A DNA stretch of 64,000 nucleotides from Thermoleophilia bacterium (GTDB lineage: Bacteria > Actinomycetota > Thermoleophilia > RBG-16-64-13), in the NCBI GenBank assembly GCA_040770645.1, contig JAXGIS010000005.1, positions 13,333 to 77,332 of the forward strand, written 5' to 3'. Position numbers and translations under genes: made by a program. The notes under the pieces were generated by a model. It saw only the letters and a program-made list of their open reading frames with translations, searched no databases and was not told where the DNA came from. Positions 38,496-56,304 of this stretch are shown one piece after another (position 1 is the stretch's first letter; the number at the start of each line of letters is the position of its first letter).

Positions 38496-38510
38496 GTGAG
38501 CGATCGCCCT

Positions 38511-40241
38511 ATGATGCAACTGCCGCACGAAGACGTAGTCATTCGCAACAAACCCAGCAAGAAACGCACGGGCGAGATCCTGGTGGAGATGGGGCTCATC
38601 ACCCCTGAACAGCTCTCGGAGGCGCTGGAAGAGCAGAAATCCACGCATCGGCGACTAGGTGAGATCTTGGTGGCCCGGAATTTCATCAGTGGCCCGGAGC
38701 TCGCCGAGGCACTTGGTCGCCGCCTGGGGGTGCGCTACATCGATCTTCACGAGACGCGGATCGATCCTTCGGCCACCAATTTGATCACGGAGAAGGATGC
38801 GCGCCGGTACGCCGCACTGCCCGTGAGTTTCTTGGATGATCACACTGTGTTGGTGGCAATGGTTGATCCCGCCAACATTTTCGCTATCGACGACCTGCGT
38901 ATTCTCACCGGCTACGACATCGAGCCGGGGATTGCCACGGAAGAAGATGTCTTCGAGGCCATCGCCAAACTCAGCAAGCTCGAGGACAAAGTTGGTGGCA
39001 ACATCGAGGATCCTACGATCACCGACCAACGTGCCACTGCCGAGGAAGTGAGGGACATCCTCGAGCAGGTGGACGAAGCACCGGTTGTGAAGTTGGTCAA
39101 CGGCATCATCGCCCAAGCCGTGGAGGACAGCGCATCCGACATCCACTTCGAGCCGCAGGCCAAAGAGATGATCGTGCGGTTTCGGCACGATGGTGTGCTT
39201 CACGAGGTCATGTCCATCCCGCGGCGTATGCAGGCAGGCGTCCTCTCTCGGGTGAAGATCATGGCCGATCTCGATATTGCCGAGCGGCGCATCCCCCAAG
39301 ACGGCCGTATCGGTCTCATGGTGGGCGGTAAACCCATTGATATGCGCGTGGCGTCGTTGCCCACAGTGTACGGCGAGAAGATCGTTATACGCCTGCTGGA
39401 TCGTTCCAACGTCATGATCGAGTTGAAGGATCTCGGCTTCTCACCCAAAGCGCTGGCGAGGTACCAGAAATCGTTCAGCAAACCTTACGGCGCCATCCTG
39501 GTAACCGGTCCCACCGGGTCCGGCAAGTCGACCACCCTCTACGCCACTCTGAACATCCTCAACTCCACCGAGAAGAACATCATCACGGTGGAAGATCCCG
39601 TCGAATACCGGCTCAACGGCATCAATCAGGTGCAGGCCAACGTGAAGACAGGGCTTACGTTCGCGGCAGGCCTCCGCTCTATCCTGCGGTGCGACCCCGA
39701 CATCGTCATGATCGGAGAAATCCGAGATCGTGAGACGGCTCAGATCGCCATTGAGTCGGCTCTCACCGGCCACTTGGTGCTGTCAACGCTGCACACCAAC
39801 GATGCCCCGGGCGCGCTGTCACGCCTCACCGAGATGGGTATCGAGCCGTTCCTCACCGCTTCGGCCGTAGATTGCGTTCTGGCTCAACGCTTGACCAGAC
39901 GCCTCTGTGAGCATTGCAAGGAGCCTTACAAGCCAACGCAAGAGATGTTGCGCCGCAACGACTTCCCACCGGAGGCGGTGGAGAACTGGGAGTCCGTCAC
40001 GCTGTACCGCGCCGTGGGATGCCGGCGCTGCAACAACACCGGATATCGGGGGCGCATGGGCATCTACGAGGTCATGCTGGTGACGGAGGCCATCGAGCGA
40101 CTAACGGTTGAGCGCAAGAGTGCCGATGAAATAGGGAGAGTGGCGCAGGCGGAAGGCATGAAGACTCTGCGCGACGACGGCATCGACAAGGTGCTTGTGG
40201 GTCTGACGAGCATCGAGGAGATCGCTCGGGTTATCGTCTGA
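38511..40241 (+). CDS. pilB: Type IV pilus assembly ATPase PilB (GspE family).
   Basis: N-terminal T2SSE_N region GEILVEMGLITPEQLSEALEEQ. Walker A VTGPTGSGKSTTL. Tetracysteine CEHCKEP...CRRCNNTGY. The ORF opens at the GTG at 38496. Confidence 0.9.
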   Translation: MMQLPHEDVVIRNKPSKKRTGEILVEMGLITPEQLSEALEEQKSTHRRLGEILVARNFISGPELAEALGRRLGVRYIDLHETRIDPSATNLITEKDARRYAALPVSFLDDHTVLVAMVDPANIFAIDDLRILTGYDIEPGIATEEDVFEAIAKLSKLEDKVGGNIEDPTITDQRATAEEVRDILEQVDEAPVVKLVNGIIAQAVEDSASDIHFEPQAKEMIVRFRHDGVLHEVMSIPRRMQAGVLSRVKIMADLDIAERRIPQDGRIGLMVGGKPIDMRVASLPTVYGEKIVIRLLDRSNVMIELKDLGFSPKALARYQKSFSKPYGAILVTGPTGSGKSTTLYATLNILNSTEKNIITVEDPVEYRLNGINQVQANVKTGLTFAAGLRSILRCDPDIVMIGEIRDRETAQIAIESALTGHLVLSTLHTNDAPGALSRLTEMGIEPFLTASAVDCVLAQRLTRRLCEHCKEPYKPTQEMLRRNDFPPEAVENWESVTLYRAVGCRRCNNTGYRGRMGIYEVMLVTEAIERLTVERKSADEIGRVAQAEGMKTLRDDGIDKVLVGLTSIEEIARVIV

Positions 40242-40263
40242 GCGTTCGGTACGGAGGCAACTC

Positions 40264-41343
40264 GTGGATCTAGTGGACATCCTGGTGCAGGTTCTGGAAA
40301 TGGGGGCTTCGGACCTTCATCTCACTGTTGGTCGTCCCCCGGTGGCGAGAGTGCACGGCAGGCTCGTGGAGCTCGAGTATCCACCGCTGAAGGGGGTGGA
40401 GACCAGAGACCTCATCTACAGCGTTCTGACCCAAGATCAGCGTCAGCGTCTGGAGACCGACTGGGAGATCGATTTCTCTTACTCCGTTCCTGCGCGGGCC
40501 CGCTTCCGTGTCAACGCTTACTTTCAGAGGAACAGCCTCGGAGCCGCGTTTCGGCTGGTGCCCTTGAACGTGATGACCATCGATCAGCTCAACCTCCCTC
40601 GGGTTGTTCACACTTTCTGCCAGAAACCGCGGGGTTTCGTTCTTGTCACCGGCCCGACCGGATCGGGAAAGTCCACCACACTCGCGGCCATCATAGACGA
40701 AGTGAACGAGACGAGGTCGGAGCACATCATGACGGTGGAGGATCCCATAGAGTTCCTCCATCAACATAAGAACTGCGTGGTGAATCAACGGGAAGTCGGG
40801 ACCGACACCAAATCTTTCAATCGAGCCCTGAAGTCCGTTCTGCGCCAGGACCCCGACGTGATTCTGGTGGGTGAGATCCGTGACGTGGAGACGGCGCGCA
40901 TCGCGATCCAGGCGGCCCTCACCGGTCACTTCGTGCTGTCGACCATCCACGCCACCGATGCCACCAGCGCCCTGCACCGCTTCTTGGACATGGGCATCGA
41001 GTCGTTCCTCCTGGCGTCGTCAGCAGGAACAGATTCGCGTGCAGATTGCCGCCTCCATCCAGGGCATCATGACTCAGCAACTTCTACCGCGGGCCGGCGG
41101 GGAGGGGCGGGTGGTGGCGTGCGAGGTTTGATCCCCACGCCGGCGGTGAGGAACCTGATCCGTGAGGGCAAGACCCACCAGATCTACACTATTATGCAGA
41201 CAGGCGCAAAGTATGGCATGCAAACTATGGACTGGGCGCTGGCCGATTTGGTGCGGCGACGGTTGATCACGCGTGAACTTGCCGAAGCGCGCTCGTCCAA
41301 TCCCGAGGATTTGAACCGTCTCATCACCAGTGGGGCAGCGTGA
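40264..41343 (+). CDS. pilT: Twitching-motility retraction ATPase PilT. The frame is broken near 41017 and near 41125.
   Basis: ASDLHLTVGRPP...VTGPTGSGKSTTLAAII...GEIRD. The interrupted stretch QQEQIRVQIAASIQGIMTQQLLPRAGGEGRVVACEV is in another frame, then LIPTPAVRNLIREGK returns to the first. Both shifts fit 1-nt homopolymer deletions. Confidence 0.85.
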   Translation: MDLVDILVQVLEMGASDLHLTVGRPPVARVHGRLVELEYPPLKGVETRDLIYSVLTQDQRQRLETDWEIDFSYSVPARARFRVNAYFQRNSLGAAFRLVPLNVMTIDQLNLPRVVHTFCQKPRGFVLVTGPTGSGKSTTLAAIIDEVNETRSEHIMTVEDPIEFLHQHKNCVVNQREVGTDTKSFNRALKSVLRQDPDVILVGEIRDVETARIAIQAALTGHFVLSTIHATDATSALHRFLDMGIESFLLASSAGTDSRADCRLHPGHHDSATSTAGRRGGAGGGVRGLIPTPAVRNLIREGKTHQIYTIMQTGAKYGMQTMDWALADLVRRRLITRELAEARSSNPEDLNRLITSGAA

Positions 41344-41368
41344 TGCAAGTAGTGGGGAGAAGAGGGGT

Positions 41369-42589
41369 ATGAGCACGTACGTCTACACCGCAAGGCCTCA
41401 GCGTGGTGCTCCGGTCAAGGGTGAGATCACGGGGGCGTCCAAAATGGCCGTCGCTGCTGAACTGCGCCGGAGTGGCCTGACGGTCCTGTCGCTCGATGAG
41501 AAAAAGACGGGGTTCTTGGCGACACTGGACCAACAATTGCAGGAAATGGGCCGTATCAAGTTGCGCGACAAGGTGGTGTTCACGCGGCAGTTTGCCACTA
41601 TGATCGCAGCCGGATTGGCCATTCTTCGTGCTCTGCATGTGTTGGAGATGCAGACGTCAAATCAGCGATTCAAGCGCGTGATCAGTCAAGTGCGGGGTGA
41701 TGTGGAGGCGGGCATGCCGATCTCTGACGCCATGGAGAAGCACCCAGTGGCGTTCGATCGGCTCTATGTATCGATGGCACGCGCCGGGGAGATGGGTGGG
41801 GTGCTCGACACGGCGCTCGACCGTCTGGCTACGCAACTCGAAAAGCAAGACAGCCTGCGTCGCTCTGTCAAGTCGGCCATGACCTATCCCATCCTTATCG
41901 GCGTCTTCGCGGTGCTCGTGCTTTTCGGCATGATCCTTTTCGTGATCCCGATATTCAGCGGCATGTACGCCGACCTGGGCGGAACCTTGCCGCTACTCAC
42001 CCGCATCATGGTCGGTATAAGCAACGCGTTGCGCAAGTGGTGGTATGTGATAATCCCGGCTCTGGTTGGGCTCGTGATTGCGCTGCGCGCCCTGAAACGC
42101 AGTCCGCAGGGCACGCGGGGCTGGGATCGTTTCAAACTTATGATCCCCATGCGTATCGGCGACATCGTGAAGAAGATCGCGGTGGCCCGCTTCAGCCGCA
42201 CTCTGGCCACGTTGTTCAGTTCCGGCGTTCCCATACTCCAAGCCCTCGACATCACGGGCAAGACCGCCGGCAATACCGTTATTGAAGAGGCGATGGAGCG
42301 GACGAAGACCGAGATTCGGGGTGGCGAATCCATTGCCAAACCGCTGGAGCAGGCGGCAGTGTTCCCGCCGATGGTGACGCAGATGATCGCGATCGGTGAG
42401 GAGACAGGCGCCTTGGACACGATGCTGCACAAGATCGCGGACTTCTACGAGGATGAAGTAGATGCGGCCGTGAAGCAGCTCACTTCGATCCTGGAGCCGG
42501 TCATGATGATCTTCGTGGGCGGATTGGTGGGCCTCATCGTGATCTCGATGTATCTGCCCATGTTCAACATGTTCAACCTGATCAATTAG
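41369..42589 (+). CDS. pilC: Type IV pilus inner-membrane platform protein PilC (GspF family).
   Basis: Two T2SSF repeats (FTRQFATMIAAGLAILRAL... and FSRTLATLFSSGVPILQAL...) and three TM segments. Confidence 0.9.
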   Translation: MSTYVYTARPQRGAPVKGEITGASKMAVAAELRRSGLTVLSLDEKKTGFLATLDQQLQEMGRIKLRDKVVFTRQFATMIAAGLAILRALHVLEMQTSNQRFKRVISQVRGDVEAGMPISDAMEKHPVAFDRLYVSMARAGEMGGVLDTALDRLATQLEKQDSLRRSVKSAMTYPILIGVFAVLVLFGMILFVIPIFSGMYADLGGTLPLLTRIMVGISNALRKWWYVIIPALVGLVIALRALKRSPQGTRGWDRFKLMIPMRIGDIVKKIAVARFSRTLATLFSSGVPILQALDITGKTAGNTVIEEAMERTKTEIRGGESIAKPLEQAAVFPPMVTQMIAIGEETGALDTMLHKIADFYEDEVDAAVKQLTSILEPVMMIFVGGLVGLIVISMYLPMFNMFNLIN

Positions 42590-42596
42590 GTTCATC

Positions 42597-43526
42597 ATGA
42601 TGAACCCGGTGTCGGTTCAGGCCACGTATCCCGCCGGGCCGCCGAGCAGAGGCTCTGTCGCAGATGCTGTGGTGGGAGGGGACGCACCGGGGGAGATGTC
42701 ACGCCCCCGGGTGGTTGGGCAGGGCGGGCAGGATGTCCTCCCAACCACGCCGGAGTGCTGCATTCGCTTGGCGGGCGGCGAGACGCCGTCCAACGAAGAA
42801 CTCGTCCTCTGCCATCAGCGGCTGGGTTGCTCCGGGTGCCTGGATGAACTCCTAGCACGAAACACAAAACTTCTTCATCACGTGCTCAAGCGCTTCGTGC
42901 ACAGCCGCGAGCCGTACGAAGATCTTCTGCAAGTGGCGTATCTGGGCTTGGTGAAAGCGATCCAGCGGTTCGATCCGTGGCGTGGCATCGTCTTCAGTAC
43001 TTATGCGGTAGCAGTGGTGGACGGAGAGGTGCGCCATTACCTGCGGGACAGCGTTTTGATGCGCCAACCACGCTGGGCCCGGACGGCATACCGCAAAATT
43101 GAAGAAGCACAGTCCGCGTTCTACGCCGAACACAAAAGATTCCCTTCGTTTACCGAACTGGCTGAGCTGGTCAACATCACGCCGGAAGGTGTTCTGGAAG
43201 TAATCCGGGGATGCTCACAGCCGGAGTTGCAGTCGCTGGATGATCCCGACGGTGCTGCGGCGAACCCAAGGCGCTTACGGGACGCGTCATACGGTCTTTG
43301 CGACACGAGAGTTTCACGCTGCTCTTTGGAGGACCGGATAGCCTTGTATCAGGCCATGGCCACGTTGTCGGCTGCACAGAAACGACTCATTTATCTGTTG
43401 TTCTTCCGGGAGTTGACACAGCAGGAAGTGGCCGACGAGTTGGGCATGACGCAACGCACGGTTTCCCGTGAGCAGCACCGAGCTTTGGCCAAGCTCAAAG
43501 CGGTGCTCACCAAGAAGATCTTCTAG
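42597..43526 (+). CDS. Sigma-70-family (group 3, FliA/SigF-like) sigma factor encoded immediately downstream of pilC. It carries a roughly 70-aa low-complexity N-terminal extension.
   Basis: Region 2 DLLQVAYLGLVKAIQRFDPWRGIVFSTYAVAVVDGEVRHYLRD. Region 4 LTQQEVADELGMTQRTVSREQHRALAKL. Confidence 0.75.
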   Translation: MMNPVSVQATYPAGPPSRGSVADAVVGGDAPGEMSRPRVVGQGGQDVLPTTPECCIRLAGGETPSNEELVLCHQRLGCSGCLDELLARNTKLLHHVLKRFVHSREPYEDLLQVAYLGLVKAIQRFDPWRGIVFSTYAVAVVDGEVRHYLRDSVLMRQPRWARTAYRKIEEAQSAFYAEHKRFPSFTELAELVNITPEGVLEVIRGCSQPELQSLDDPDGAAANPRRLRDASYGLCDTRVSRCSLEDRIALYQAMATLSAAQKRLIYLLFFRELTQQEVADELGMTQRTVSREQHRALAKLKAVLTKKIF

Positions 43527-43867
43527 TCCAGCTTCCGCTTGTTCATCTTGCATTGTGCGTGCACCACCAGCATCGCGGCCAGCGTGTCGAACTTGTAATG
43601 CACGATAATCTACATTATGTCAAGTTCATGAACGAGAAACGGGGGTTGGAGGACGGCTTGGAGGTTGGGAACACTCGGCGTCGGCCACGTATCGCACTTG
43701 CGATGCTCCTCCCCACCGGGTACAGTGTTGTCAAGCGTCAGAAAGGAGGTGGTCCAGATCGATACATTGCCTTGTAGACGCAGTGGCTATAGGACCGGGG
43801 TGGTGTTCGCCTCTAGCCGCAAGATACCCGGAGGACGCGCACTTGCGGCGCCCCGGAAGCCACGTCG

Positions 43868-43900
43868 TCTGATCACAGCGCTGAGGGCCGCCACATTGGG
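43868..43900. terminator. GC-rich 13-bp inverted repeat GCTGAGGGCCGCC-ACATT-GGGCGGCCCCTCAGC, between convergent genes.
   Basis: A near-perfect hairpin 18 nt downstream of the minus-strand MerR-like stop. There is no U-tract, which is common in high-GC genomes. Confidence 0.4.
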
Positions 43901-43917
43901 CGGCCCCTCAGCGTCTC

Positions 43918-44673
43918 TCAGCGCACGAGTGCCCGCATATCCTTCAGGAGCAGTAACTGGAAGAGGCTCGAGATCAGCGCGCCCAGATCAAGCACCTGAC
44001 GTTCGCCCTGTTCGCGCCGTTCGGGATGCGGTGAGCGCAAAGCGGGTGCAGTGGCCTGTTCGATGACGGCTGCTTCTCTCTCCACTGCGGAACGTGTCAT
44101 GCGCAGGTTGCGAGGTTCGACCCCGAACCGCCGCAGAAGACCACAGATACGGGCGGCTTCGACATCGCTCTCTGTGAAGACAGCCGTCCCGGCCTCCCCC
44201 ACCCGGCGATCAACCAATCGGAACTCGACTGAGTTGACGCATGAAGTCCTCGTCGACGCCGCTGACCTCGAGCGCTTCATCCCAGGGAATCAGTCTTTCT
44301 TCGCGGCGAAGTCCGGCGGTGCGATCCAGGCCTTGCGGAGATGTAACCGGCGTACCCGATGCCTGCGGCGATGGTACGCCTCGCGCCAAGCGCTCCCGAA
44401 TGACATCCAGCGGCAGGAACTCGTCCTGCTGCATAGCTCAGGATGGTGCGAAGCCGGCGCGCGTCGGCCTGGGCGTAGGTGCGATATCCCCCTGGGGTGC
44501 GTTGCGGAGCAATCAGCCCCTCGTTCTTCGAGGTAACGTACCTTGCTAATACTTAGGTCGGAACCAGTATGCAACGAGTCCACGAGTTGGCCGATCTTCG
44601 AGATCGAGATGTCCGGGAACTCGTCGACCAGGATCTTCAAGACCTGGCCGATGCTGCGCCGATCCGGTGGCAT
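43918..44673 (-). CDS. MerR-family regulator of the actinobacterial Rv1828/FtsR type. The frame is broken twice.
   Basis: Three consecutive minus-strand ORFs carry the pieces: MerR HTH SIGQVLKILVDEFPDISISKI...VRYLEERG, a middle piece LPLDVIRERL, and a C-terminal piece FRLVDRRVGEAGTAVFTESDVEAARICGLLRRFGVEPRNLR. Confidence 0.7.
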
Positions 44674-45153
44674 CTAGTCCTGCCCGGCCGCGTCCACCAG
44701 ATAGACCATGCGGAACTTGCCGATCTGGACCTCGTCGCCGTTACGCAGATGCCGGCGCTCGACGCGGCGGCGGTTCACGTAGGTACCGTTGAGGCTGTTC
44801 AGGTCTTCGATCGCAAAACCGCTGGCATCGCGCACCACCCGGGAGTGGTGACGGCTGACGGTGATATCGTCCAGGAACAAGTCACTATCCGGATTGCGGC
44901 CGATGGTGACAACATCGCCCTCCAGCAACATCTCCTCTCCTTCACGACCGCCGCCGGCTCGGATCACGAAGCCCGGCGCCAAGATGGACTCCTGTGCCGT
45001 CTCCAGTGTGGTGTCGAACTCGCCCGCTTCACCCCGGTCGTAAACGGCGGTCACATCGGCCGCATTCTGTACGGCCATGCGAGTACCACAATGACTGCAG
45101 AAGTTCGCGTCCTCGATATTCTCAAAACCACACTTGGGACAAGCAGCACTCAT
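44674..45153 (-). CDS. FHA-domain protein with an N-terminal zinc ribbon (GarA/OdhI-like position).
   Basis: CPKCGFENIEDANFCSHCG, then FHA GDVVTIGRNPDSDLFLDDITVSRHHSRVV...NSLNGTYVNRRRV. Confidence 0.8.
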   Translation of the reverse strand: MSAACPKCGFENIEDANFCSHCGTRMAVQNAADVTAVYDRGEAGEFDTTLETAQESILAPGFVIRAGGGREGEEMLLEGDVVTIGRNPDSDLFLDDITVSRHHSRVVRDASGFAIEDLNSLNGTYVNRRRVERRHLRNGDEVQIGKFRMVYLVDAAGQD

Positions 45154-45174: not shown

Positions 45175-45540
45175 CTAGTCGCGGCCCTCGATCTTCTTGA
45201 CCGGGGCGTAGTCCACGGTGTACGCGTAGCGCCGTCCTGCCAGTTGATCTTCTATGCCTCTGACAATGGTGGGGTTTTCAACCAGTCTGGCGCGCATGTG
45301 CGGTGTTGTGTGATTGACGACGTAATGCTCCTGCATAATGTCGTCATAAGGCTTGCCCTTCCGCATTTCGTTCATGATGTAGCGAATGACTCGCTCTTCG
45401 CGGACACCCGCAGTGGCGTTGAACACGAGTGAACGAAACGCTCCAACCAGACGATTCAGCGCACCAGCCACTAGTCTCCCCCCGTTCGGCTCATATGCTC
45501 GACCGCTACACAGAGAGTACCCGGCGACGGGACACGTCAA
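45175..45540 (-). CDS. Hypothetical 121-aa protein. No family recognised.
   Basis: The ATG overlaps the upstream stop as ATGA. Clear codon periodicity. Motif IMNEMRKGKPYDDIMQEHYVVNHTTPHMRARLVENPTIVRGIEDQL. Confidence 0.45.
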   Translation of the reverse strand: MTCPVAGYSLCSGRAYEPNGGRLVAGALNRLVGAFRSLVFNATAGVREERVIRYIMNEMRKGKPYDDIMQEHYVVNHTTPHMRARLVENPTIVRGIEDQLAGRRYAYTVDYAPVKKIEGRD

Positions 45541-45827
45541 TCCTGCGACAGGCTGTCCTCCACCGCCCCGGGTCTACCACTTAGAATGGCGCTCAGAGAG
45601 TCGATGTCCTCCTCTCGAAACAACCCATCGCCGGTTTTATGCTTGTCTCTCAGCCTACGAACGATCTCGGCGCGGATGATGTCGAGCTTCCCGTGAATGA
45701 TTCTCCGTTCGCGGGAGATCTCGCGTTCCTCGCGCTGCAACCTCTCTGACAGCTCCCTCAACTCGTCGTCCGAATAGGACCTTATGTTCACGAGAACGTC
45801 AAAGGAGTCCTTGCTCACGTTCATCAT
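45537..45827 (-). CDS. Hypothetical 96-aa coiled-coil protein. No family recognised.
   Basis: MMNVSKDSFDVLVNIRSYSDDELRELSERLQREEREISRERRIIHGKLDIIRAEIVRRL. The ATG overlaps the gcvH stop as ATGA. Confidence 0.5.
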   Translation of the reverse strand: MMNVSKDSFDVLVNIRSYSDDELRELSERLQREEREISRERRIIHGKLDIIRAEIVRRLRDKHKTGDGLFREEDIDSLSAILSGRPGAVEDSLSQD

Positions 45828-46210
45828 TCCTCGTTCTGGCTCAACATGGCCTCGTATTCTTCGATGGTCATGAGAGCCTCCAACTCGGCGGCGTCTGCCA
45901 ACCTGACGCGCACCAACCACCCATCTTCGTAGGGGCTCTGGTTGATGAGTTCTGGAGCGTCGATGACCTCTTGGTTGACTTGCACCACCGTCCCACTCAC
46001 CGGTGCGTAGACGTCGGAGACGGCCTTGACCGACTCGATCTCCGCATACGGTTCACCGGCAGTCAGAACAGTCTCTTCCGCCGGCAGTTCCACGTACACG
46101 ATGTCACCCAGGGTCTTCTGTGCATAATCGGTGATCCCGAACACGGCAATCGCTCCGTCCATTCTGACCCAATCGTGTTCTTCGTGGAACCTGAACTCCT
46201 TCAAGTTCAC
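45824..46210 (-). CDS. gcvH: Glycine cleavage system H protein.
   Basis: Lipoyl-lysine motif AEIESVKAVSDVYAPVSG. HEEHDWVRMDGAIAVFGITDYAQ. Confidence 0.85.
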   Translation of the reverse strand: MNLKEFRFHEEHDWVRMDGAIAVFGITDYAQKTLGDIVYVELPAEETVLTAGEPYAEIESVKAVSDVYAPVSGTVVQVNQEVIDAPELINQSPYEDGWLVRVRLADAAELEALMTIEEYEAMLSQNEE

Positions 46211-46270
46211 AACCGCTCCTTTCCCGCCCTATAGGCCAAAATCATCATAACACAGGGTTCTAGAGCTCCC

Positions 46271-46633
46271 TTAAGTTGAAGCAGAGGTTTGCATGTGGGC
46301 CGCCTGCAGCAGCAAAGCATCAAGCCTGCGCGTGATCTCGGTTCCTCGGGGCATGGGTGTTCCGGCCTCTTCCCTTGCCTCTGTGGTGGTACTCAGATCA
46401 TCTTGGGAGTGGAAAGTGAACTCACCGCTGGAGTTCCGCAGGAGCAGGAAGAAGGCGTCTTCGCCGGCCTGTCCCCCCTCTGTGCCGGCTCGGACCGGTG
46501 CTCCAGCTTCAAGGTGGATTTCACCCTGCGCGCAATCACCAGAGATCCGCACAATCCCCGATGCACGGCGCAGACTCAGGACCTGTAGCACATCGCCGAG
46601 CGCGAAGCAGTCCAACCTACCGTTTACCGCCAC
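46271..46633 (-). CDS. PATAN/DUF4388-domain protein. This family of regulators is linked to motility.
   Basis: LDCFALGDVLQVLSLRRASGIVRISGDCAQGEIHLEAGAPVRA fits the DUF4388 signature (L.DF.L.DVLQ....R.TG.L.....G.I....G). Confidence 0.6.
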   Translation of the reverse strand: MAVNGRLDCFALGDVLQVLSLRRASGIVRISGDCAQGEIHLEAGAPVRAGTEGGQAGEDAFFLLLRNSSGEFTFHSQDDLSTTTEAREEAGTPMPRGTEITRRLDALLLQAAHMQTSAST

Positions 46634-46746
46634 CGTTAGCCGCCTGGTTCGTTTAACTCTCGGAATCTGGATTCTAGCATTGTGGGTCAGGCAAAGCGGC
46701 TATACTGGCCCAAGGTGTCCCGTCACTCACCCGTGAGGAGAGGTAT

Positions 46747-47238
46747 TTGGCTCCACGAAGAGGCCTGATCATCAGCAGCGACCAGATGCGGGTGGTGGAC
46801 ACCATCCTGCAACAGCTACGAGAGGTATCCGGGGTTCGTTTCATTGCGGTAGTGTCCACGAGCGGCCAGCCGATAACCTCGAGCCCCACCGACCATCACC
46901 CGGACATGCTCTCCCTCGCTTCTTTGGCCGCCAGTTCGTTTGCAGCGACCCAGCAACTAGCCGGCATACTCAGTGAGAAGGAGTTCACGCTGCTCTTCCA
47001 CGAAGGTCGTGAACTCAACCTTCACGTAGCTCAAGTATCGGACAAAGTACTGCTGGTTATTGCGTTTGGGCACGATACCCAGGTGGGAAAGGTCCGACTG
47101 TACACCGGTCGGGCTGTTGCCGCTCTGGCACCGGTATTCGCGGAACCCAACGGAGCAGACACGCCTGCCGTGGTCGATGCAGCGTACACGGCCCAGGCGA
47201 GTGAGGCCATCGAAGACCTGTTCACGGGTCAGGAGTGA
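46747..47238 (+). CDS. mglB: Roadblock/LC7-domain protein MglB (GAP for MglA).
   Basis: GVRFIAVVSTSGQPITSS...SLASLAASSFAATQQLAGIL...LLFHEGRELNLHVAQVSDKVLLVIAFG. TTG start after a GAGGAGAGG RBS. The stop overlaps the mglA RBS. Confidence 0.75.
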   Translation: MAPRRGLIISSDQMRVVDTILQQLREVSGVRFIAVVSTSGQPITSSPTDHHPDMLSLASLAASSFAATQQLAGILSEKEFTLLFHEGRELNLHVAQVSDKVLLVIAFGHDTQVGKVRLYTGRAVAALAPVFAEPNGADTPAVVDAAYTAQASEAIEDLFTGQE

Positions 47239-47244
47239 TCGACA

Positions 47245-47829
47245 TTGCCCCTGATCAACTTCGCTGCGCGCGAGATCAACTACAAGATCGTCTACTACGG
47301 ATGTGGTCTTTGTGGCAAGACCACCAACATCCAGTACATCCATCGCAAGGTGAACCCGAACACGCGGGGCAAACTCGTCAGCATCGCCACCGAAGAAGAA
47401 CGCACGCTCTATTTTGACTTCCTACCCCTTTCCCTTGGTTCAGTCAAAGGCATGAAGACACGGTTTCATCTGTACACGGTACCGGGTCAATCCCACTACA
47501 ATGCCTCACGCAAGCTCGTGTTGCAGGGCGTTGACGGCATCGTGTTCGTGGTGGACAGCCAAATCAGCCGGCTTGACGAGAATGTGGAGAGCTATCTCAA
47601 CCTGTGGGACAACCTGTTCGAACAGGGAGACGATCTTTCACGCATGGCCCTCGTACTGCAGATGAACAAACGTGACCTGACAGAGGTGTTCTCGGTGCCA
47701 GATCTGGTGGAGTTGTTGAATCAAATCAGGTCACCGGTATTCGAAGCTTCGGCGCTCACCGGCATTGGGGTGTTCGAGACGCTCAAATCCGTTTGCAAGC
47801 AGGTCATTGCGCGCACGGCTCAGCCGTAG
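47245..47829 (+). CDS. mglA: Ras-like small GTPase MglA.
   Basis: Near-identical to the Myxococcus/Thermus MglA signature: [29 protein letters not shown], intrinsic Arg-finger RTLYFDFLP, switch II YTVPGQ, and G4 NKRDL. TTG start after an AGGAG RBS. Confidence 0.85.
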
Positions 47830-47881
47830 GAGCCTCGGGTAAGAGCCTCAGAGTCCTCGGGAGCCAAGGGCGCGGACGGCC

Positions 47882-49649
47882 TCATCCACCCACCCGCACG
47901 ATCCAGTCCTTCGGTTGGTAGACGCTCTCGAACTCGTCTGTGAACAGCAGCTGCCCGTCCGGTCCATGGACTGAGCGCCGCACGCTCACGGAGCGCCCCT
48001 CGATGCCGGGTTCAAGTTCGTCACGCTGGCCCGGCGCGAGCGCAGGATCCACGAGAATCCGCGGATAGGTGGGACTACTGCGTGGCGGGACTACGTCGCG
48101 GATGGGGCTCGTGGAGAGTTCCACGCGGCGTGCGAAGGCTACCCCCGACAGCTTCACTTCCACGAAGTCATCGGCGGCCACTACATTCAGGAGAAGCACC
48201 GAATCGCTGTCGTTGCGGAACCTGAAGTCCTGCGACCCATACGACACCGTGGCGTCGCGCCCCACTGGGTAGCGTTCCAGGAACAAGGCGTGAGGCCAAC
48301 GCTCCACCACGGGCAGACCGGCGAGCAGTACGGCGTTGAAGAGCGTGGTCGAGACCTGGCAAATCCCCCCTCCCCACCCCGGGAACGAGAACGCCGTTGT
48401 CTATGACGGGCGCTTCGTCATAGCCGGCTGCCTGGGTCCGAGGGCCCACCGCCTCGTTGAACGAAAAGGTCTCTCCCGGCCGGATCACGCGACCGTCGAG
48501 CGTGGCGGCCACTTGGGCGATATTGTTGACACGGGCCCGATTGGCCGGGGAGAAGTACGTGGTGAAACTGGCGATAACACTTCGCGACTGCAGCATCTCC
48601 GCGTCCAGGGTGGTGAGTCGTGGCGCCCAGGTTTCCGTGGGGACGGCTACGTGCCGCGGGGCCGAACGGAGTGCCGCCTGGTCGATGAGACGCAGTAGGG
48701 TGTCCCAGTTGACCCGCACCCCGTCCTTGCTGGCAATCACGGAGTAAGAGCGACCATCGACGGCCGGCACGATCTCGGCATCCACCGGAGGCGTTTCGAT
48801 GGCCGCCAATCGCTGCTCCACCAGTTCCCGTCCGGTTGTACTGTCCACCGTGAGCGGCCGCCCCGCGTCAACGCCCTCAGGGAAGAATTGCGCCATCTGT
48901 GCCAGATCGTCCGGCGTCAGGTCCGCAACCCAATCGCGGTAAGTGAGCCTCACGGGAGCCGAGAAGAAGATCGACGCGTCTTCCAATGCTTTGAGGGCTT
49001 TCTCGGTGGTGAGTTTGGGAGCGATGGCATCCACGGGAACCTGTAAGTCTTGGGTTACTTGTAAGTCTCGGGTTCCGCCGGCCACGGCATCCATCAACAG
49101 ATGTTTGAGCGCCTCACGATTGAGTCTTGCCCCCTTCCGAGCGGCGATGACCTTCGGTTCCCCGCCGTTCACCACTAGTTCCGCATCCACCGGCAGGTGT
49201 TCCACCACGATGCTGAGCACATCTGCGACGGACAGGAAGGGCGCATCATCAATCGTAATCGGTGTCGCGATGTCTCGTGGAGAGATCCACAGGCGCATCC
49301 GCTCGATCAAACGGGCGAAGAGCGAACCCGATCTGCCCACCTCCATCGCCCGCACGGCCGTGGTGGCGACATCTATGTGCACCCCGGCGTCTGCCGCAGT
49401 GATGATGGTCGTGAAGGCGGGTGCTGCGTCGCCGCCGACGAGTGTCAGTCTCCGGTTGAGACGCCGGGCTGCTTCCTGGGAAAGCCGCGTCTCGGCCTCG
49501 ACGGGGGCGAGCCCGCCCAGTTGGACGCCGAGGGCGGTGACTCCCCTGTGAATCCGGCCTCGACTGATGAATGCGTCCACCCCCACTGCCGATAATGCCA
49601 GCAACACGAGGAGGCCTACTATGATGGAGGCCTGTCTGCCCCTGCTCAC
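47882..49649 (-). CDS. VanW-family protein, anchored by an N-terminal TM segment. The frame is broken near 48340.
   Basis: N-terminal helix IIVGLLVLLALSAV. A large extracytoplasmic region. The C-terminal VanW domain VERWPHALFLERYPVGRDATVSYG is in ORF 47882..48310. The shift lies at a C-rich homopolymer. Confidence 0.75.
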
Positions 49650-49709: not shown

Positions 49710-50453
49710 TCATTCTGCCGGCTTTGCGTATTCGAAGACCCGAGGCCCATCCCTACGCGGCGGGATCTCAATCTCCACATTCACGCCCGCGTGTGCGTGC
49801 ACACCGGGGACCTGTGCCAGGGTCGACACCAGTCCTCCGGGAACGTTCAGAGCCGATAGCAGGGACTGGGGCTCACCAATGGCGGCAAACGCGTATGGTG
49901 GCAGCAAAGGCGTCCCATCACAGGTTAGAGCCCCTGTGCTGCCGCCGAACCAGGAATCGAGAGCCAGCCGTCTGTTGTTGATTGAAATGGCTTGAGCTCC
50001 AGCGGCTCGCAATTCGTTGAGAGCGAGTGTGAGTTCATAGACGGACAGGCGGCCTTCGCCATCCTCGATGTCCAGCTGTATACCGGAACCATGTACGGGG
50101 ACCGTGCCCGAGGCTTGGGCCAGAATCTCGAGGGTCTCCTGTGTGCGCGCGGCGGCCTCCTCCAGGGACTGGGAGTTGGAGCGGCCGTCGATCGACCGAA
50201 TGTGCAACTCGGTGTCCTCCTGTTGTAGTTGAGCGATCTCCCGGCTCAATGCGCCGACCATACGCCCGAGCTCGTCTACACCGCGCAGATACAAATCCGA
50301 GTGTGAGCCCTCCTGCGTTCGCATTTGAGCCGCCAACAAGAAGCCCGTGATGGCCAATACCAAGAACACTGCGAACGCCACCGCGCGGCCTTTGCCGCCG
50401 CGGCGGGGAGGTCGTGAGGTGGTGCGCAGTATGTCGATGACTTGCGGAGCCAT
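49710..50453 (-). CDS. DUF881-domain protein (Rv1825/YlxW-like).
   Basis: N-terminal TM AVAFAVFLVLAITGFLLAA, then the DUF881 core GSGIQLDIEDGEGRL...LNELRAAGAQAISINNRRL. Confidence 0.7.
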   Translation of the reverse strand: MAPQVIDILRTTSRPPRRGGKGRAVAFAVFLVLAITGFLLAAQMRTQEGSHSDLYLRGVDELGRMVGALSREIAQLQQEDTELHIRSIDGRSNSQSLEEAAARTQETLEILAQASGTVPVHGSGIQLDIEDGEGRLSVYELTLALNELRAAGAQAISINNRRLALDSWFGGSTGALTCDGTPLLPPYAFAAIGEPQSLLSALNVPGGLVSTLAQVPGVHAHAGVNVEIEIPPRRDGPRVFEYAKPAE

Positions 50454-50457
50454 GTTT

Positions 50458-50796
50458 CTACTTGACAGTGATACGGCGAAGGGTGGCCAAGTTGTGAAAA
50501 ACGCGCACACTCAAAGCCACGGCGGCCGCAAGGTATAGGTTGACGCCGAGTCGGTCGCCCAGAAAGGTGATGAGCGTGGCCAGCGCAGTGTTCAGCAATA
50601 AGCCCCCCAAGAACACCCGGAGCGCAAAGGAACGCCCGAGGAAGGCCCGCAGCCCGCCCAAGCCGGAGTTGAGAACGGCTAGAACGGCAATCGATAGATA
50701 TCGGGCGTAAGAGGCGGGCACATGGAACTTGAAGATCAAGCCCAAACTCACACCCACCAGCAGTCCGAGCAGAGGGATAGCGAGTCGGCGATTCAT
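50458..50796 (-). CDS. sbp: Small basic membrane protein Sbp (DUF1290).
   Basis: 112 aa, all-helical and hydrophobic. Flanked by two DUF881 genes, as in the Rv1823-1825 / ylxW-sbp-ylxX arrangement. ATGA overlap with the upstream gene. Confidence 0.7.
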   Translation of the reverse strand: MNRRLAIPLLGLLVGVSLGLIFKFHVPASYARYLSIAVLAVLNSGLGGLRAFLGRSFALRVFLGGLLLNTALATLITFLGDRLGVNLYLAAAVALSVRVFHNLATLRRITVK

Positions 50797-51611
50797 GGGG
50801 CCTCATCTCGACGCAACGCTGATGGTGCTGTGCTGCCTGCGCCCCCAGGCAGTCTCAGATTTTGCATCTCTTCCATCTTGAGCAAAAGACCGAAACGCTC
50901 TACATGCTCATTTATCAGGGAGCGGCTGTCATCGTCGTCTTGCAACGCTTGAGCCAGGGAGGTGGTGTGGCCCACCGCCTCGATTCGGAAAGGCGAAGCC
51001 AGCCGTGTGTTGTTCACGAGCACCGTGGGGCCCACACAGCGAACAGCCGAGAGTTGTGTGAGTCTCTCATCGTTGACGGCTATCGCCTCAGCACCACCGG
51101 ACCACAGTGCATTGATCAATGCGCGGAGATCGTAATCGTGGACGAGGGCACCTTCCAGGTCTGAGGGGAATCCCTGGGGTCGAGGGTTATCGGCGATGGT
51201 GATGCGCAAACCCGGCCCGTGAACGGGCAGCATGGCCGTGAGCATGCTCAGGTCACGGATTTGCTGAGAGTGTTCTTCCAACACTTCTCTCCAGGTGACG
51301 TGGTGGGCTTCGAGGGCGCTGATCTCGAGGCGGCGCACAGCGAGGCTCATCTCCAGTTCATCTCTGCGCGCTTCGAGTTCATGCACTACCTGAATCAGAT
51401 CTTCTCGGCGGTCGCCGATGCCGGCGACCGCCAACACCTGTGGGGCATTGCGGACCGCAGCCACGAGGAGGAAGCCCACCACCATCGTGGCGATTGCAAA
51501 GAGCAGGTGGTCTCCCCGGCGGCTCTTGGAGCGAGCCGAAGACCGGGTTCTCAGCGTACTCTCATTCGTCCGACGACCGCTCGGCAATGAGCGCCTCCAG
51601 TCTCTGCGCAT
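50793..51611 (-). CDS. DUF881-domain protein (Rv1823/YlxX-like).
   Basis: [20 protein letters not shown], then [13 protein letters not shown]...[20 protein letters not shown]. Confidence 0.7.
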
Positions 51612-54057
51612 GAGTCTGAGCCAAGGTCGCGGCGCCCTCCTCGCTCTGCGCTTCCGCGTACACGTGAAATAGGGGGGTCATCGGCGTCAGGGAGTATTTG
51701 TACCCAGGTTCGGGGGCCCAAAGGTGACCTTCACTCCGTCCACCAGCGAGACACTCCTCGTTTCGGTAGTGCTCCACCGTCAAGCGCATCACGGTACCCT
51801 TGAGGTTCCAGGGACACTCCACAGGTACATGTGCCACATGAGACGGGGATCTCTGCCACCAACTCTGAGAGGCGCTCCACACCGCTCGACACCAACTCCA
51901 AGACCTTACCGAACGCGTAAACGGCGTCCATGCTGGGTGAGAAGCGCGGAAGATGACTCCCCCCGCGGCGTCGCCCGCGAAGATGATGTCGGGCCTGGCT
52001 GCCTCTTCCATCAATGCGGCCGGAGCCACTTTGGTCCGCACCACCCGTGATCCGCTCTCCATGACCAGGTCCGCCACCTGATCCGTAACGTTCAACGGCA
52101 GGGCCACCACTCCCGGACCCAGTTCCCGGCACGCCTGCACGGCAAGGAGAGCCAGCAATACGTCCGGACGTACCACCCGGCCTTGTTCGTCCAGCACCGT
52201 CAGTCTCTCAGCTCCGGCATCGAACATGATGCCGAGGTCGGCTTCCATAGATCTAACCTGGCGGGCGGTGTGCTCGAGCGCGTCACCTGATTCTATGCCG
52301 GCGGTCTTGCGGCGGCTGACCACCAACGCCTCGATCTCGAGTTGGTCTATGAGACTGGAGAGCACGGCACCCGCGGCGGACTGGGCGTAGTCGACGGCCA
52401 CTCGAAGACCGCGTCGGTTGAGGTCGCCCACGCGCCAGCCCTGGAGGCATGCGGCCCGATAACCCTCAACGAGGCGTGCCGGATAGGAGATGGCACCAAT
52501 CTCGTCCAGGAAGGCTCTGCGGAAGTCCTCCCTGTGATAGTAATTCTCGATACTCCGCTCGCGTTTGTTGCTTATGGGCACGCCGGGTGGCTCTGAAAAC
52601 AGGATCTCAACAGCTTCCGCATCCTCCGGACACATGCGCACGTGGATACCCCCAGCCGCATTGCCTCCCTGCAGCATGAAGCGGTTGACGGCCACGGGTA
52701 CTACTTCGAGGTCAAGGACTGAGATGCCCGCCGAGTTCAATCCTGCAATCACGGATCTTTTGAGCACCCTACTGGCGGGGTGACTGTCACGGCTGGTGGC
52801 CACAAAGGACCCCTTGGTCAGGATGGTCCCGTACGACATGGCCAACCGCATGGCCATCTCGGGCGTGATGTCGACATTGACCAGACCCCGCACACCATTC
52901 TGGCCGAATAGAGCACTGGCGCCCTTGGTCTCCCAGATGAGGCTGGAGTTGACGGTGGACCCGGGATCGATAGTCTTGTGGGGGTAGACCTTGACCGCGT
53001 TGCCCACCATCGCGTTCTCGCCGACAGAGCACCGGTCGCCAATGACCGCTCCCTCGGCCACCACAGCATTCTGCCGTATGTCGACCGAGGTACCCAGGAC
53101 GGCGCCGCTCACTCGAGCGCCGGCCGCCACGTACGAGTTGTCGCCGATGACCGAGCCCATCACCGTGGCTCCGCGCTTCACCACCACGTTGTTGCCGAGT
53201 ACGACATGCGGTCCCAGCACCGCACCCGATTCCACACGCGCGTAATTCCCGATCAGGGCCGGCCCGGTGACTTCATCGAGTGAATCCAGCGCTACGCCCT
53301 CCCCCACCCAGATGTTGCCGCGCAGCCTCACGCCGGGGAGTTGGAGTCTGATATGACCGTCGAGAGCATCACGGTTGGCCTGCAGGAACTGCTCCAGACT
53401 GCCGATGTCCTGCCAGTAGCCATCGAGGACGCAGCCGTAGAGAGGCTTGCGCATCTCGAAGAGTTTGGGGAAGAGTTCGTGACTGAAGTCGTAAGGGACG
53501 CCCGCTGGTATGTGGTCCAGCACCTCGGGCTCCATGACGTAGATGCCGGTGTTGATGGTGTCGGAGAAGACCTGGCCCCATCCCGGTTTTTCCAGGAAGC
53601 GCTCGATGCGCCCGTCCTCGTCCACTATGACTACACCGAACTCCAGTGGGTTGTCCACGCTCTTGAGTGCAATGGTGACCATGGCTTCGCGTTGCCGATG
53701 GAAATCGATCACAGTGGAGAGATCGAAGTCGGTCAACGAGTCGCCGGAGATGATCACGAAAGTGTCGTCGAGAACGGAGGCAGCGTTCTTGACCGAGCCC
53801 GCAGTGCCGAGCGGGCTCTCTTCAACGGCATATTCGATGCTCATGCCCAAGGCCGACCCGTCCCCAAAGTGCGCCCGGATCACTTCGGACATGAAGGCGA
53901 CGGTCATGACCACATGTTCAATTCCGTGTCGATGGAGAAGATCGAGTATGTGTTCGGCCGTGGGCTTATTGCCCACGGCCACCATCGGTTTGGGAACGTT
54001 GGAGGTAAGTGGACGGAGTCTCGTCCCCTGACCTCCAGCCATGACGACGGCTTTCAC
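51562..54057 (-). CDS. Bifunctional sugar-1-phosphate nucleotidyltransferase / phosphomannomutase (ManC-like N-terminus, left-handed beta-helix, PGM/PMM C-terminal domains). The frame is broken in the last third.
   Basis: [25 protein letters not shown]. Hexapeptide repeats. PGM active-site region [12 protein letters not shown]. The C-terminal pieces are in two other frames, around 52130-51730. Confidence 0.8.
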
Positions 54058-54450: not shown

Positions 54451-55427
54451 TCACTCGGCTTTGGGCCGGCGGCCCATAAGGTCCTGCACGGCTTGGCGGA
54501 TCTCTTTACCCTCATAGATCAGGGCCACGACATTCTCCGTGATGGGCATGTCGCAACCCAGATCGCGGGCCAAGCCCCACACCGCCGGTGCGGCCGTCAA
54601 GCCTTCTGCAACCATGCCCATCTGCAACTCGATCTCACCTGGTGAGTGTCCCTTGGCCAAGAGCTCCCCGGCCAACCGATTGCGGGAGTGCCTCGAAGTG
54701 CACGTGGCCACGAGATCACCCATTCCGGCAAGCCCGGAGAAGGTGGCCTGATCTGCGCCCACCGCACCCCAGCCTGGCCATCTCGGCGAGACCACGGGTC
54801 ATGAGTGCTGCCCAGGTGTTATCTCCGAAACCGAGACCGTCGGCGGCTCCCGTGGCCCAGCGCAATCACGTTCTTGACCGATGCTGCGATCTCGACTCCC
54901 ACCAGGTCGGTGTTGACGTAGGCCCGGAACCGCTCGTCACTCACCAGCTCTTGCAGTTCACGCAAACTGGATGTCGCGCGAAGCCGCGACTGTGGCCGTG
55001 GGCATATCCAGCGATACCTCTTCTGCATGATTCGGCCCCGAGAGGACGGCCACCCTCGGGGATAAGCCCTCCATGCCTTCCTCCAACACCACGCTCAAGC
55101 GGCGCAGGGTTCCCGGTTCCAGACCTTTGGTGAGACTGAGTATGCCGACGCCGTGAGCGAGTCGAATCGCAGCGACTCCACGGTGGCGGCGTGGGCTCGG
55201 CTGGGTATCGCCAGCACCACGAGGTTGGACTGCGAGAAATCGAATGCATTATATGTATCGATGCGGAGCGATGGGGGCAGTGCCACTGTGCGGAGGTACT
55301 CCGGGTTGCGCCTCTGCACGGTCATGAGGTGCGCATGATCGCTTCGGCGCGAGAGCAGCGTGGTGGAGATACCCCGTAAAGCCAAATGGCGGGCGAACGC
55401 CGTCCCCCAACTGCCCGCTCCCACCAC
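54451..55427 (-). CDS. gpsA: Glycerol-3-phosphate dehydrogenase [NAD(P)+]. The frame is broken two or three times.
   Basis: The N-terminus [16 protein letters not shown], the middle [27 protein letters not shown] and the C-terminus [25 protein letters not shown] lie in three ORFs. Confidence 0.75.
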
Positions 55428-55590
55428 GCAACTCGCGTACGCCCCTCGGTCCCCTTCGGGGTGGGGGCGGCATTTAGCGTCAACTGGATCCCACGGGGTG
55501 CGACACGTTTGGATTCTCTCCTGGGCGCGGGGGTGGAGCGGGGTGGCGTACGGGGTGCGGGCGAACCGGTGGCAGAAGCCTGTGAGTCCG

Positions 55591-56304
55591 TCACTTCCGG
55601 CGGGGCCGTGTCCGGGGCGGGGGCATCCACCGTTGCGCGGTGGCATTGCCTGCCGCCCCCGAAGTCTCTTCGTTGTCTGCCCCGTCGCCAGGCCGTTTTG
55701 TCTTCCACGGCCACTCCAGCCGTGGCTCCTTACCTGTAACGATGCGCTTCAGGTTCCCGCGATGGGCATAGAAGATGATGATTGCAGCGCAGAATGATAA
55801 CGCCATGTACGGCCAAGGCTGCCTACCCACCAATGTGGTAGCCACGAACACCAGCGTGGCGAACAGCGATCCCACCGATACGATTCTGGTGAGGAGGATC
55901 ATCACGGTGAAGCCGAGGACGACGATCAGGCTGCTGACCGGCATGAGGCCGATGATGACGCCTGCAGTGGTGGCGATACCCTTCCCTCCCCTCCCCCGCA
56001 GGAAGACGGACCAGTTGTGGCCGACTATGGCTGCCAGGCCCACTCCCACGCTGGCCAGAGGGCCGAAAGCGAGCCAGCGGCACACCAGGATGGGAAGCAA
56101 CCCCTTCAGTATGTCGCTCACAAGCACAACGATTCCCAGCTTCACGCCCAGCACGCGGAAGGCATTCGTGGTGCCGGGGTTGCCGCTGCCGTGCTCACGA
56201 ACGTCAATATGCCTGACGAGCTTGCCCAGGAAGACGCTGGGTGAGACTGAGCCAAGGAGGTAGGAGCCAACCACGACGCCCGCGATCAGCCACGGATTCG
56301 CCAT
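55591..56304 (-). CDS. plsY: Glycerol-3-phosphate acyltransferase PlsY.
   Basis: GSGNPGTTNAFRVLG...IVGHNWSVFLRGRGGKG. The 3' end of the ORF probably runs past the true stop. Confidence 0.85.
   Translation of the reverse strand: MANPWLIAGVVVGSYLLGSVSPSVFLGKLVRHIDVREHGSGNPGTTNAFRVLGVKLGIVVLVSDILKGLLPILVCRWLAFGPLASVGVGLAAIVGHNWSVFLRGRGGKGIATTAGVIIGLMPVSSLIVVLGFTVMILLTRIVSVGSLFATLVFVATTLVGRQPWPYMALSFCAAIIIFYAHRGNLKRIVTGKEPRLEWPWKTKRPGDGADNEETSGAAGNATAQRWMPPPRTRPRRK

Follow-up and report, generated by a model that had tools for sequence, protein, structure and literature searches.

The locus described here is a 3.4-kb segment (46271–49649) within a stretch of 64,000 nucleotides from a Thermoleophilia bacterium (assembly GCA_040770645.1, contig JAXGIS010000005.1, positions 13,333 to 77,332), which in its full length is referred to as the window and has a GC content of 61.6%. 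The segment carries a PATAN (DUF4388) gene, the gene pair mglB–mglA (mglBA), which encodes a Ras-like polarity GTPase and its GTPase-activating protein, and a VanW-domain gene. It is flanked by gcvH, garA, and ftsR on the left and by a DUF881–sbp–DUF881 block on the right. Gene order was determined from an open reading frame (ORF) listing together with Pfam and NCBIfam scans. These confirm the gene calls and coordinates that an initial annotation, made from the letters alone, had given for the four segment genes and for both flanks. Two genes of the left flank were not part of that annotation: an RsiG-like gene and a conserved ORF of 98 aa, both located between gcvH and garA. The features of the segment and its surroundings are as follows.

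43918–44673, minus strand: ftsR, an Rv1828-like MerR gene (Pfam), frame broken in the window
44674–45153, minus strand: garA (Pfam FHA and zinc ribbon)
45175–45471, minus strand: conserved 98-aa ORF between rsiG and garA, without a Pfam or NCBIfam match
45537–45824, minus strand: single-motif RsiG-like gene of the c-di-GMP-dependent anti-sigma family (Pfam RsiG, E = 8e-13)
45824–46210, minus strand: gcvH, the gene at the left junction (Pfam GCV_H, E = 7e-44)
46243–46256, minus strand: promoter-like extended -10 element CCTGTGTTATGATG upstream of gcvH, within the 60-nt spacer between PATAN and gcvH
46271–46633, minus strand: stand-alone PATAN (DUF4388) protein of 120 aa, divergent from mglB (Pfam PF14332, E = 2e-11)
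46701–46706, plus strand: promoter-like -10 box TATACT, 40 nt upstream of the mglB start
46747–47238, plus strand: mglB, Roadblock/LC7 GTPase-activating protein of 163 aa (Pfam Robl_LC7, E = 1.5e-12)
47245–47829, plus strand: mglA, Ras-like polarity GTPase of 194 aa
47882–49649, minus strand: VanW-domain/PG_binding_4 gene, convergent with mglA (Pfam)
49710–50453, minus strand: DUF881, start of the right junction block
50458–50796, minus strand: sbp (DUF1290)
50793–51587, minus strand: second DUF881
51562–54057, minus strand: manCB, a manC/manB fusion of 831 aa
54289–54363: tRNA-Pro, the sole tRNA in the window

The DUF881–sbp–DUF881 block is recognized by Pfam with E-values of 1e-25, 2e-28, and 5e-38. 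The pair mglBA is the sole unit that runs antiparallel to an otherwise co-directional array, and the VanW gene is co-directional with that array.

MglA is 58% identical to the MglA of Myxococcus xanthus and matches its structure over residues 1–189 (PDB 6hjh, E = 6e-72) as well as Thermus MglA (3t12, E = 2e-65). The P-loop, the arginine finger (R53), and the catalytic glutamine (Q82; M. xanthus numbering) are all conserved in the alignment. MglB matches the solved structures of Thermus and Myxococcus MglB (E = 3e-15) and reaches 74 bits on the NCBIfam equivalog for Thermus-type MglB, which has a cut-off of 200; hence, it is a divergent member. The mglB gene ends 6 nt before the start codon of mglA on the same strand, and this pairing recurs in all 13 loci compared for their neighborhood (window included). 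As judged from their sequences, the two proteins are bona fide members of the group 1 MglA/MglB family. The closest MglA homologs are proteins of metagenome-assembled genomes (MAGs) labeled Gaiellales, Thermoleophilia, or Actinobacteria (78–100% identity), and database annotators already call these proteins "gliding-motility protein MglA." The PATAN protein scores 44 bits on PF14332 (cut-off 25); no second domain was matched by Pfam in its 120 aa, and a C-terminal receiver domain of the PatA type is absent. The VanW gene matches PG_binding_4 (E = 2e-22) and, on two pieces, VanW (E = 2e-15 and 4.5e-11). It is intact with 588 aa in a second assembly of the same species (L001), and its domains identify the product as a peptidoglycan-binding VanW-domain protein. 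An assignment as VanW glycopeptide-resistance accessory protein was rejected, with 71 bits against an NCBIfam equivalog cut-off of 365 and no van genes nearby.

In six other assemblies, MglA is identical and the gene order unchanged, and this order is likewise kept in every relative whose MglA is 79–100% identical to that of the window. The 13 loci fall into three types. Type A (the window, L007, L008, L010, L012, L013, L015, and L033) reads ftsR-garA-98aa-rsiG-gcvH-(PATAN)-mglB>mglA>-<vanW-DUF881-sbp-DUF881-manCB; type B (L009 and L036) has the same order minus vanW and the DUF881 block; and type C (L034, L035, and L105) reads ftsR-garA-rsiG-(PATAN)-mglBA-vanW-manCB-pgsA. Within the fetched DNA, DUF881–sbp–DUF881 is missing at the locus in types B and C, and gcvH as well as nearby pil genes are additionally missing in type C. 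In all 13 loci, mglB and mglA occupy the same slot in the same orientation, between rsiG/gcvH and vanW/manCB, and rsiG lies within ~1.3 kb of mglB, being its immediate divergent neighbor in L034 and L035. The VanW gene is found in 11 of the 13 and was seen only in loci that carry mglBA. PATAN is present in five of them, always at the same place and in the same orientation: the orthologs of L007, L013, and L015 show 39–40% identity, and the type C locus L105 has a form of 199 aa (Pfam E = 9e-19). In L008, L010, L012, and L033, PATAN is absent and the spacers measure only 154–225 nt; L012 is the nearest other species to the window, yet it lacks the gene. Because PATAN is patchy at a constant place, an ancestral three-gene module with repeated loss of PATAN is indicated. 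Thus, nothing in the neighborhood is as stable as mglBA, and PATAN, VanW, gcvH, and the DUF881 block are the variable elements. The 98-aa ORF is kept in type A and B relatives (35–78% identity) and seems to be fused to garA in L036, where the gene call has 254 aa.

MglA identity among the 13 relatives ranges from 76 to 98% and amounts to 77–86% between types A/B and type C. On average, pairs of loci share 83% identity in MglA, 64% in MglB, and 49–58% in the frame proteins GarA, FtsR, and ManCB. The distances of MglA and MglB track those of the frame genes (Spearman 0.52 and 0.70, respectively; Mantel p ~0.0015), as vertical descent predicts. A separate contig scan with an sbp alignment and narrow patterns returned 21 loci, six of which are relevant; the others belong to Symbiobacteriaceae or other Bacillota and carry DUF881–sbp only. 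A contig labeled "Mycobacterium leprae MAG73" (L020, JBLNEM010000340.1) has a Symbiobacteriaceae-type DUF881–sbp locus with sporulation-type sigma genes, so that this bin is probably contaminated or mislabeled.

The actinomycete reference for this region was taken from an sbp profile search, whose results came mostly from Micrococcales and Propionibacteriales and served for this baseline alone. In Nocardioides dongkuii, the order is pgsA-DUF881-sbp-DUF881-gcvH-garA-ftsR-nuclease-merR-gcvP, and Cellulomonas keeps this order but lacks gcvH. The contiguous actinomycete order from DUF881 to ftsR, on which the initial annotation had relied, is therefore seen in an actual genome. The Nocardioides order matches that of Rv1822–Rv1830 in Mycobacterium tuberculosis. 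All six genes DUF881-sbp-DUF881-gcvH-garA-ftsR are present in the window with order and orientation kept, as is pgsA in relatives, and the intact FtsR of L001 scores 201 bits on the NCBIfam FtsR equivalog (cut-off 150). Compared with the actinomycete locus, however, the synteny is not contiguous: 3.4 kb lie between DUF881 and gcvH, gcvH and garA are separated by rsiG and the 98-aa gene, and the locus as a whole is broken up by manCB, vanW, mglBA, PATAN, rsiG, and the 98-aa gene. The nuclease and the second MerR gene, which follow downstream in actinomycetes, are missing. The picture of a conserved block split by an insert thus holds insofar as extra genes part the DUF881 block from gcvH relative to Actinomycetia, but not as regards a recent event or a lower GC content. 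That the segment is one single insert is not supported: VanW is co-directional with the flanks, PATAN is patchy, and the clade also has manCB, rsiG, and the 98-aa gene, all missing at this locus in actinomycetes. According to published work, garA-ftsR-nuclease-merR is conserved, and Actinobacteria differ in what lies upstream of odhI/garA (PMC6683498). A literature search on DUF881 and Rv1825–Rv1828 returned nothing relevant.

A recent horizontal insertion of a genomic islet into an intact DUF881–gcvH operon region, as the initial annotation had proposed, would account for the mixed gene orientations, for the contiguity of the two halves in actinomycetes, and for the total GC of mglA, which at 0.542 is the lowest of any 585-nt window. 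The composition argues against it. The segment was said to be less GC-rich than its flanks; measured, it has a GC of 0.610, the flanks have 0.595 and 0.608, and the window averages 0.616. Among equal-sized windows, the segment ranks at the 30th percentile, and VanW lies above average at 0.64. The GC at third codon positions (GC3) of mglA is 0.723, close to the window mean of 0.718 (SD 0.038); its low total GC is therefore due to the amino acid composition of a very conserved protein, that is, to codon positions 1 and 2. DUF4388 (GC3 0.636) and mglB (0.659) are within ~2 SD and resemble aroE, one of the two DUF881 genes (DUF881a), and ispH; several housekeeping genes reach values just as low. 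In a leave-one-out codon-usage likelihood, the insert genes do not differ from the other 24 genes (Mann–Whitney p = 0.76). No short direct repeats, which the initial annotation had suggested looking for, are found at the junctions, where direct and inverted repeat matches stay at chance level. The annotated ORFs of the window include no integrase or transposase, and no tRNA is adjacent, the nearest being 4.6 kb away, beyond manCB. Neither is the presence of mglBA patchy, since the pair occurs in all 13 examined loci of the clade, and the identical arrangement in 13 divergent lineages is accompanied by co-divergence. The supposed signature of an insertion into an ancestral operon dissolves accordingly: GC, GC3, and codon usage show no difference, an outcome that the initial annotation itself had named as speaking against its view, and junction repeats and mobility genes are lacking. 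Identity as a mobile island was rejected on the same grounds of composition, repeats, mobility genes, and presence, and a recent insertion is very improbable. An assembly artifact or chimeric join can be practically discounted: many 1–2-nt indel errors do occur in the window, but the order recurs in six assemblies made independently from the same species and in every more distant relative. Hence, the 3.4-kb segment is probably a long-resident, vertically inherited part of a Thermoleophilia-like actinobacterial chromosome.

Relatives in which the slot is empty bear on how the segment arose. A search with a 45-aa fragment of the RsiG of Rubrobacter radiotolerans gave one match, a contig of 874 nt that reads manCB>rsiG>garA, with 150 nt from manCB to rsiG; its RsiG shares 73% identity with the solved R. 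radiotolerans protein. When metagenomes were scanned with single-motif RsiG as the anchor, 80 loci were obtained, 69 of which have a determinable neighbor upstream of rsiG: pgsA in 53, manCB in 15, and mglB in one (L105). Apart from L105, the DNA fetched for these loci is free of mglA, mglB, vanW, PATAN, gcvH, sbp, and DUF881; since the scan was ranked by likeness to Rubrobacter-like RsiG, it over-samples lineages outside the clade of the window. The empty slot is thus a feature of Rubrobacter-like and high-GC soil relatives, where manCB or pgsA is directly followed by rsiG-garA-ftsR. The manCB gene, a fusion of a mannose-1-phosphate guanylyltransferase-like and a phosphomannomutase-like part, borders the slot in the mglBA clade and in Rubrobacter-like loci (L037, L038, L085, and L097), and it is missing at the locus in actinomycetes and in the high-GC pgsA–rsiG group. 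In a bootstrapped neighbor-joining tree of GarA and FtsR (57 loci, 373 columns, rooted with Nocardioides), support is 100 for the Rubrobacter-like group, 100 for A+B, 100 for C, 83 for C together with the high-GC pgsA–rsiG group (S), and 94 for A+B+C+S. Monophyly of the mglBA carriers receives a bootstrap of only 2, as the carriers are paraphyletic to the empty-slot group S.

Given the empty-slot outgroups, an acquisition of mglBA is the most parsimonious history, and we infer with moderate confidence that its simplest form is one gain of PATAN–mglBA in the ancestor of A+B+C+S, after the Rubrobacter-like split, with a later loss in S. The notion of an insertion into an ancestral region is hence plausible as far as an acquisition relative to the empty-slot outgroups and actinomycetes is concerned, and it fails where a recent or strain-level event is meant. 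The sequence of events would be that a phylum-wide frame, pgsA ... garA–ftsR, encloses a slot whose content varies by class; that the slot of the clade ancestor gained the PATAN–mglB–mglA module; that mglBA has been fixed ever since, with PATAN, VanW, gcvH, and DUF881–sbp–DUF881 lost or moved in different sublineages; and that one high-GC soil sublineage lost mglBA entirely. Several points weigh against this history. The tree is a distance tree from two short proteins of the locus itself and draws on metagenome contigs; its C+S node stands at 83%, which makes a single gain with monophyletic carriers possible; the labels "Rubrobacter-like" and "Solirubrobacterales-like" derive from RsiG identity and GC content; and an origin before the split of Rubrobacteria and Thermoleophilia, followed by losses, is possible. 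In this last version, mglBA, with or without PATAN and VanW, would be older than the clade and go back to the ancestor that Rubrobacteria and Thermoleophilia share, or even to that of all Actinomycetota, with several losses and a derived contiguity in actinomycetes. The tree already implies at least one loss, in the high-GC pgsA–rsiG group, the slot is prone to gene loss, and Rubrobacter xylanophilus retains an orphan MglB. Additional independent losses would, however, be needed in the Rubrobacter-like and actinomycete lineages, and no group 1 MglA was found in 169 actinobacterial genomes (PMC4316618), which leaves so early an origin unlikely, if worth keeping in mind. The paraphyly of the carriers could also mean at least two independent acquisitions into the same slot, one by types A/B and one by type C. 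These types nevertheless share the orientation, the divergent pairing with rsiG/gcvH, the -10 box, and the position of PATAN, and their MglA identity of 77–86% fits vertical descent, so that repeated acquisition is quite improbable. Whether by a single later gain or by an older origin with losses, the mglBA event is ancient. As an insertion event, the segment is ordinary, with no mobile element, recent transfer, or sequence anomaly.

The intergenic regions contain putative regulatory elements. Most of the 12 compared lineages have a (TG)nTATACT box ~40 nt ahead of mglB; L034 has only GATACT. Its conservation suggests that mglBA is an autonomous unit with a predicted promoter of its own, divergent from gcvH/PATAN. 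Upstream of gcvH, a box together with the ribosome-binding site GAAAGGAGCGG is found in nine of 10 lineages, with or without PATAN; the box is the same as or nearly the same as CCTGTGTTATGATG, for example TGTGTTATGAT, TGTGCTATAGT, or TGCTATCAT. A generic sigma-70 scan did not call the TATACT box of mglB and gave one promoter-like match, inside gcvH. A generic terminator scan found no terminators, and the convergent spacer between mglA and vanW folds no better than shuffled sequences (z = +0.99), with no terminator-like hairpin.

Further features that bear on a possible function are found to the left of ftsR.

Upstream of pilB, plus strand: aroE
38496–42589, plus strand: pilB–pilT–pilC, type IV pilus motor ATPases and platform protein (Pfam T2SSE with MshEN, T2SSE, and T2SSF)
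38496–40241, plus strand: pilB within this group
42597–43526, plus strand: SigB/F/G-family sigma factor directly after pilC

The genes pilB, pilT, and pilC are 4–8 kb away from mglBA, and relatives of types A and B keep them in a collinear order. Because of the MglA/MglB homology, the nearby pil genes, and the RsiG neighbor, control of type IV pilus polarity is the likely function of the module, as we infer from homology and gene neighborhood. By analogy, MglA would be a GTP-bound polarity switch, MglB its GTPase-activating protein, and the PATAN protein an accessory partner, PATAN being a known associate in MglA/MglB neighborhoods (PMC4316618). Together, they would set the polarity or activity of the type IV pili encoded nearby, and the neighboring single-motif RsiG would add c-di-GMP-dependent transcriptional control. 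The RsiG-like protein matches R. radiotolerans RsiG (PDB 7lq2, E = 2e-7). Its c-di-GMP motif reads E-x3-S-x2-R-x3-H-x3-D, with a histidine replacing the canonical glutamine; this histidine is common to most relatives, and the glutamine is kept in L035 and in the Rubrobacter-like copies. Some observations count against the proposed role. The link to the pili is one of neighborhood, and nearby pilB, pilT, and pilC genes are missing in type C loci; both sigma factors of the window score as SigB/F/G-type, neither being a clear WhiG; and a search for WhiG/FliA-type promoters (TAAA-N14–17-GCCGATAA, at most two mismatches) gave six matches where 5.6 are expected, none of them near mglBA. The sigma factor at 42597–43526, which has the same position in relatives, is a divergent SigB/F/G type (167 bits, below the cut-offs) and a candidate partner of the RsiG-like protein.

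Several reading frames of the window are interrupted. Compared with L001, which belongs to the same species and is 98% identical, the window shows ~2% substitutions and many 1–2-nt indels, several of them in homopolymer runs. The break in the VanW gene is due to one additional C within a C-run, at 48372, and both VanW (588 aa) and FtsR (247 aa) are intact in six other assemblies. As the VanW and MerR breaks are 1-nt indels relative to intact assemblies, these apparent pseudogenes are almost certainly assembly errors, and the indels of the window are probably long-read consensus errors rather than pseudogenization. Indels at 40901–41127, 43258–44565, 48372, 51672–51948, and 54768–55640 break the frames of pilT, the sigma factor gene, ftsR, vanW, manCB, gpsA, and plsY, and alaS, aspS, and aroA likewise seem to be divided. 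Two neighboring plus-strand ORFs (5112–7197) together make up elongation factor G, one with the GTPase domain (5112–5768) and one with domains II–V (5821–7197), a probable frameshift artifact. At the 5' end of ftsR (44596–44712), ~117 nt do not align with L001, which has 98 nt there; the translation resembles a short internal duplication of the helix-turn-helix start (ISISKIGQL...LSISKVRYLEE).

These results extend group 1 MglA to a monoderm phylum in which a 2014 survey found none, and no paper linking MglA with Thermoleophilia was found in the literature searched. They further indicate that the pgsA ... garA–ftsR locus, conserved in Actinobacteria, holds a slot with class-specific content, which in an uncultured Thermoleophilia-like lineage would from the outset have held a Myxococcus-type MglA/MglB/PATAN switch. 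This switch is a candidate regulator of type IV pilus polarity, next to an RsiG switch that is tied to pili in Rubrobacter. It is offered as a tentative and still rather doubtful proposal that this may be the first group 1 MglA/MglB/PATAN module documented in Actinomycetota, fixed throughout the history of a class-level monoderm lineage between RsiG/GarA/FtsR and cell-envelope genes (VanW-domain, DUF881/sbp, ManCB, and PgsA) with pilB, pilT, and pilC in the vicinity. Should this linkage be functional, these bacteria might tie a Ras-like control of polarity, acting on type IV pili or else on the division site or poles, to c-di-GMP and the FtsR/GarA circuit. We know of no actinobacterium with such wiring.

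Among known systems, the conservons (CvnA–D), with the group 2 MglA-like CvnD and the MglB-like CvnB, likewise combine a Ras-like GTPase and a Roadblock protein in an actinobacterium. In contrast to them, the neighborhood in the window has no CvnA histidine kinase and no CvnC, for which reason identity as a conservon was rejected. The GTPase is presumably also far closer to Myxococcus MglA than a conservon GTPase would be. In Rubrobacter, type IV pilus genes are under the control of an anti-sigma complex that single-motif RsiG, armed with c-di-GMP, forms with WhiG (PMC8325347). The window shares with this (RsiG)2–(c-di-GMP)2–WhiG switch a single-motif RsiG homolog and type IV pilus genes in the neighborhood; it differs in the histidine of the motif, in having no clear WhiG, and in showing no enrichment of WhiG-type promoters, and Rubrobacter-like loci, unlike the clade of the window, are without mglBA. 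The module also resembles the group 1 MglA/MglB of M. xanthus and Thermus thermophilus (Wuichet and Sogaard-Andersen 2014). The partners RomR, Frz, and SofG did not turn up in the window, where no search was aimed at them. Common to these systems are a GTPase of ~195 aa, a Roadblock MglB directly upstream in the operon, and an occasional PATAN neighbor, whereas here the host is a monoderm actinobacterial lineage, and the module is locked in the pgsA ... garA–ftsR cell-division and metabolism locus next to rsiG.

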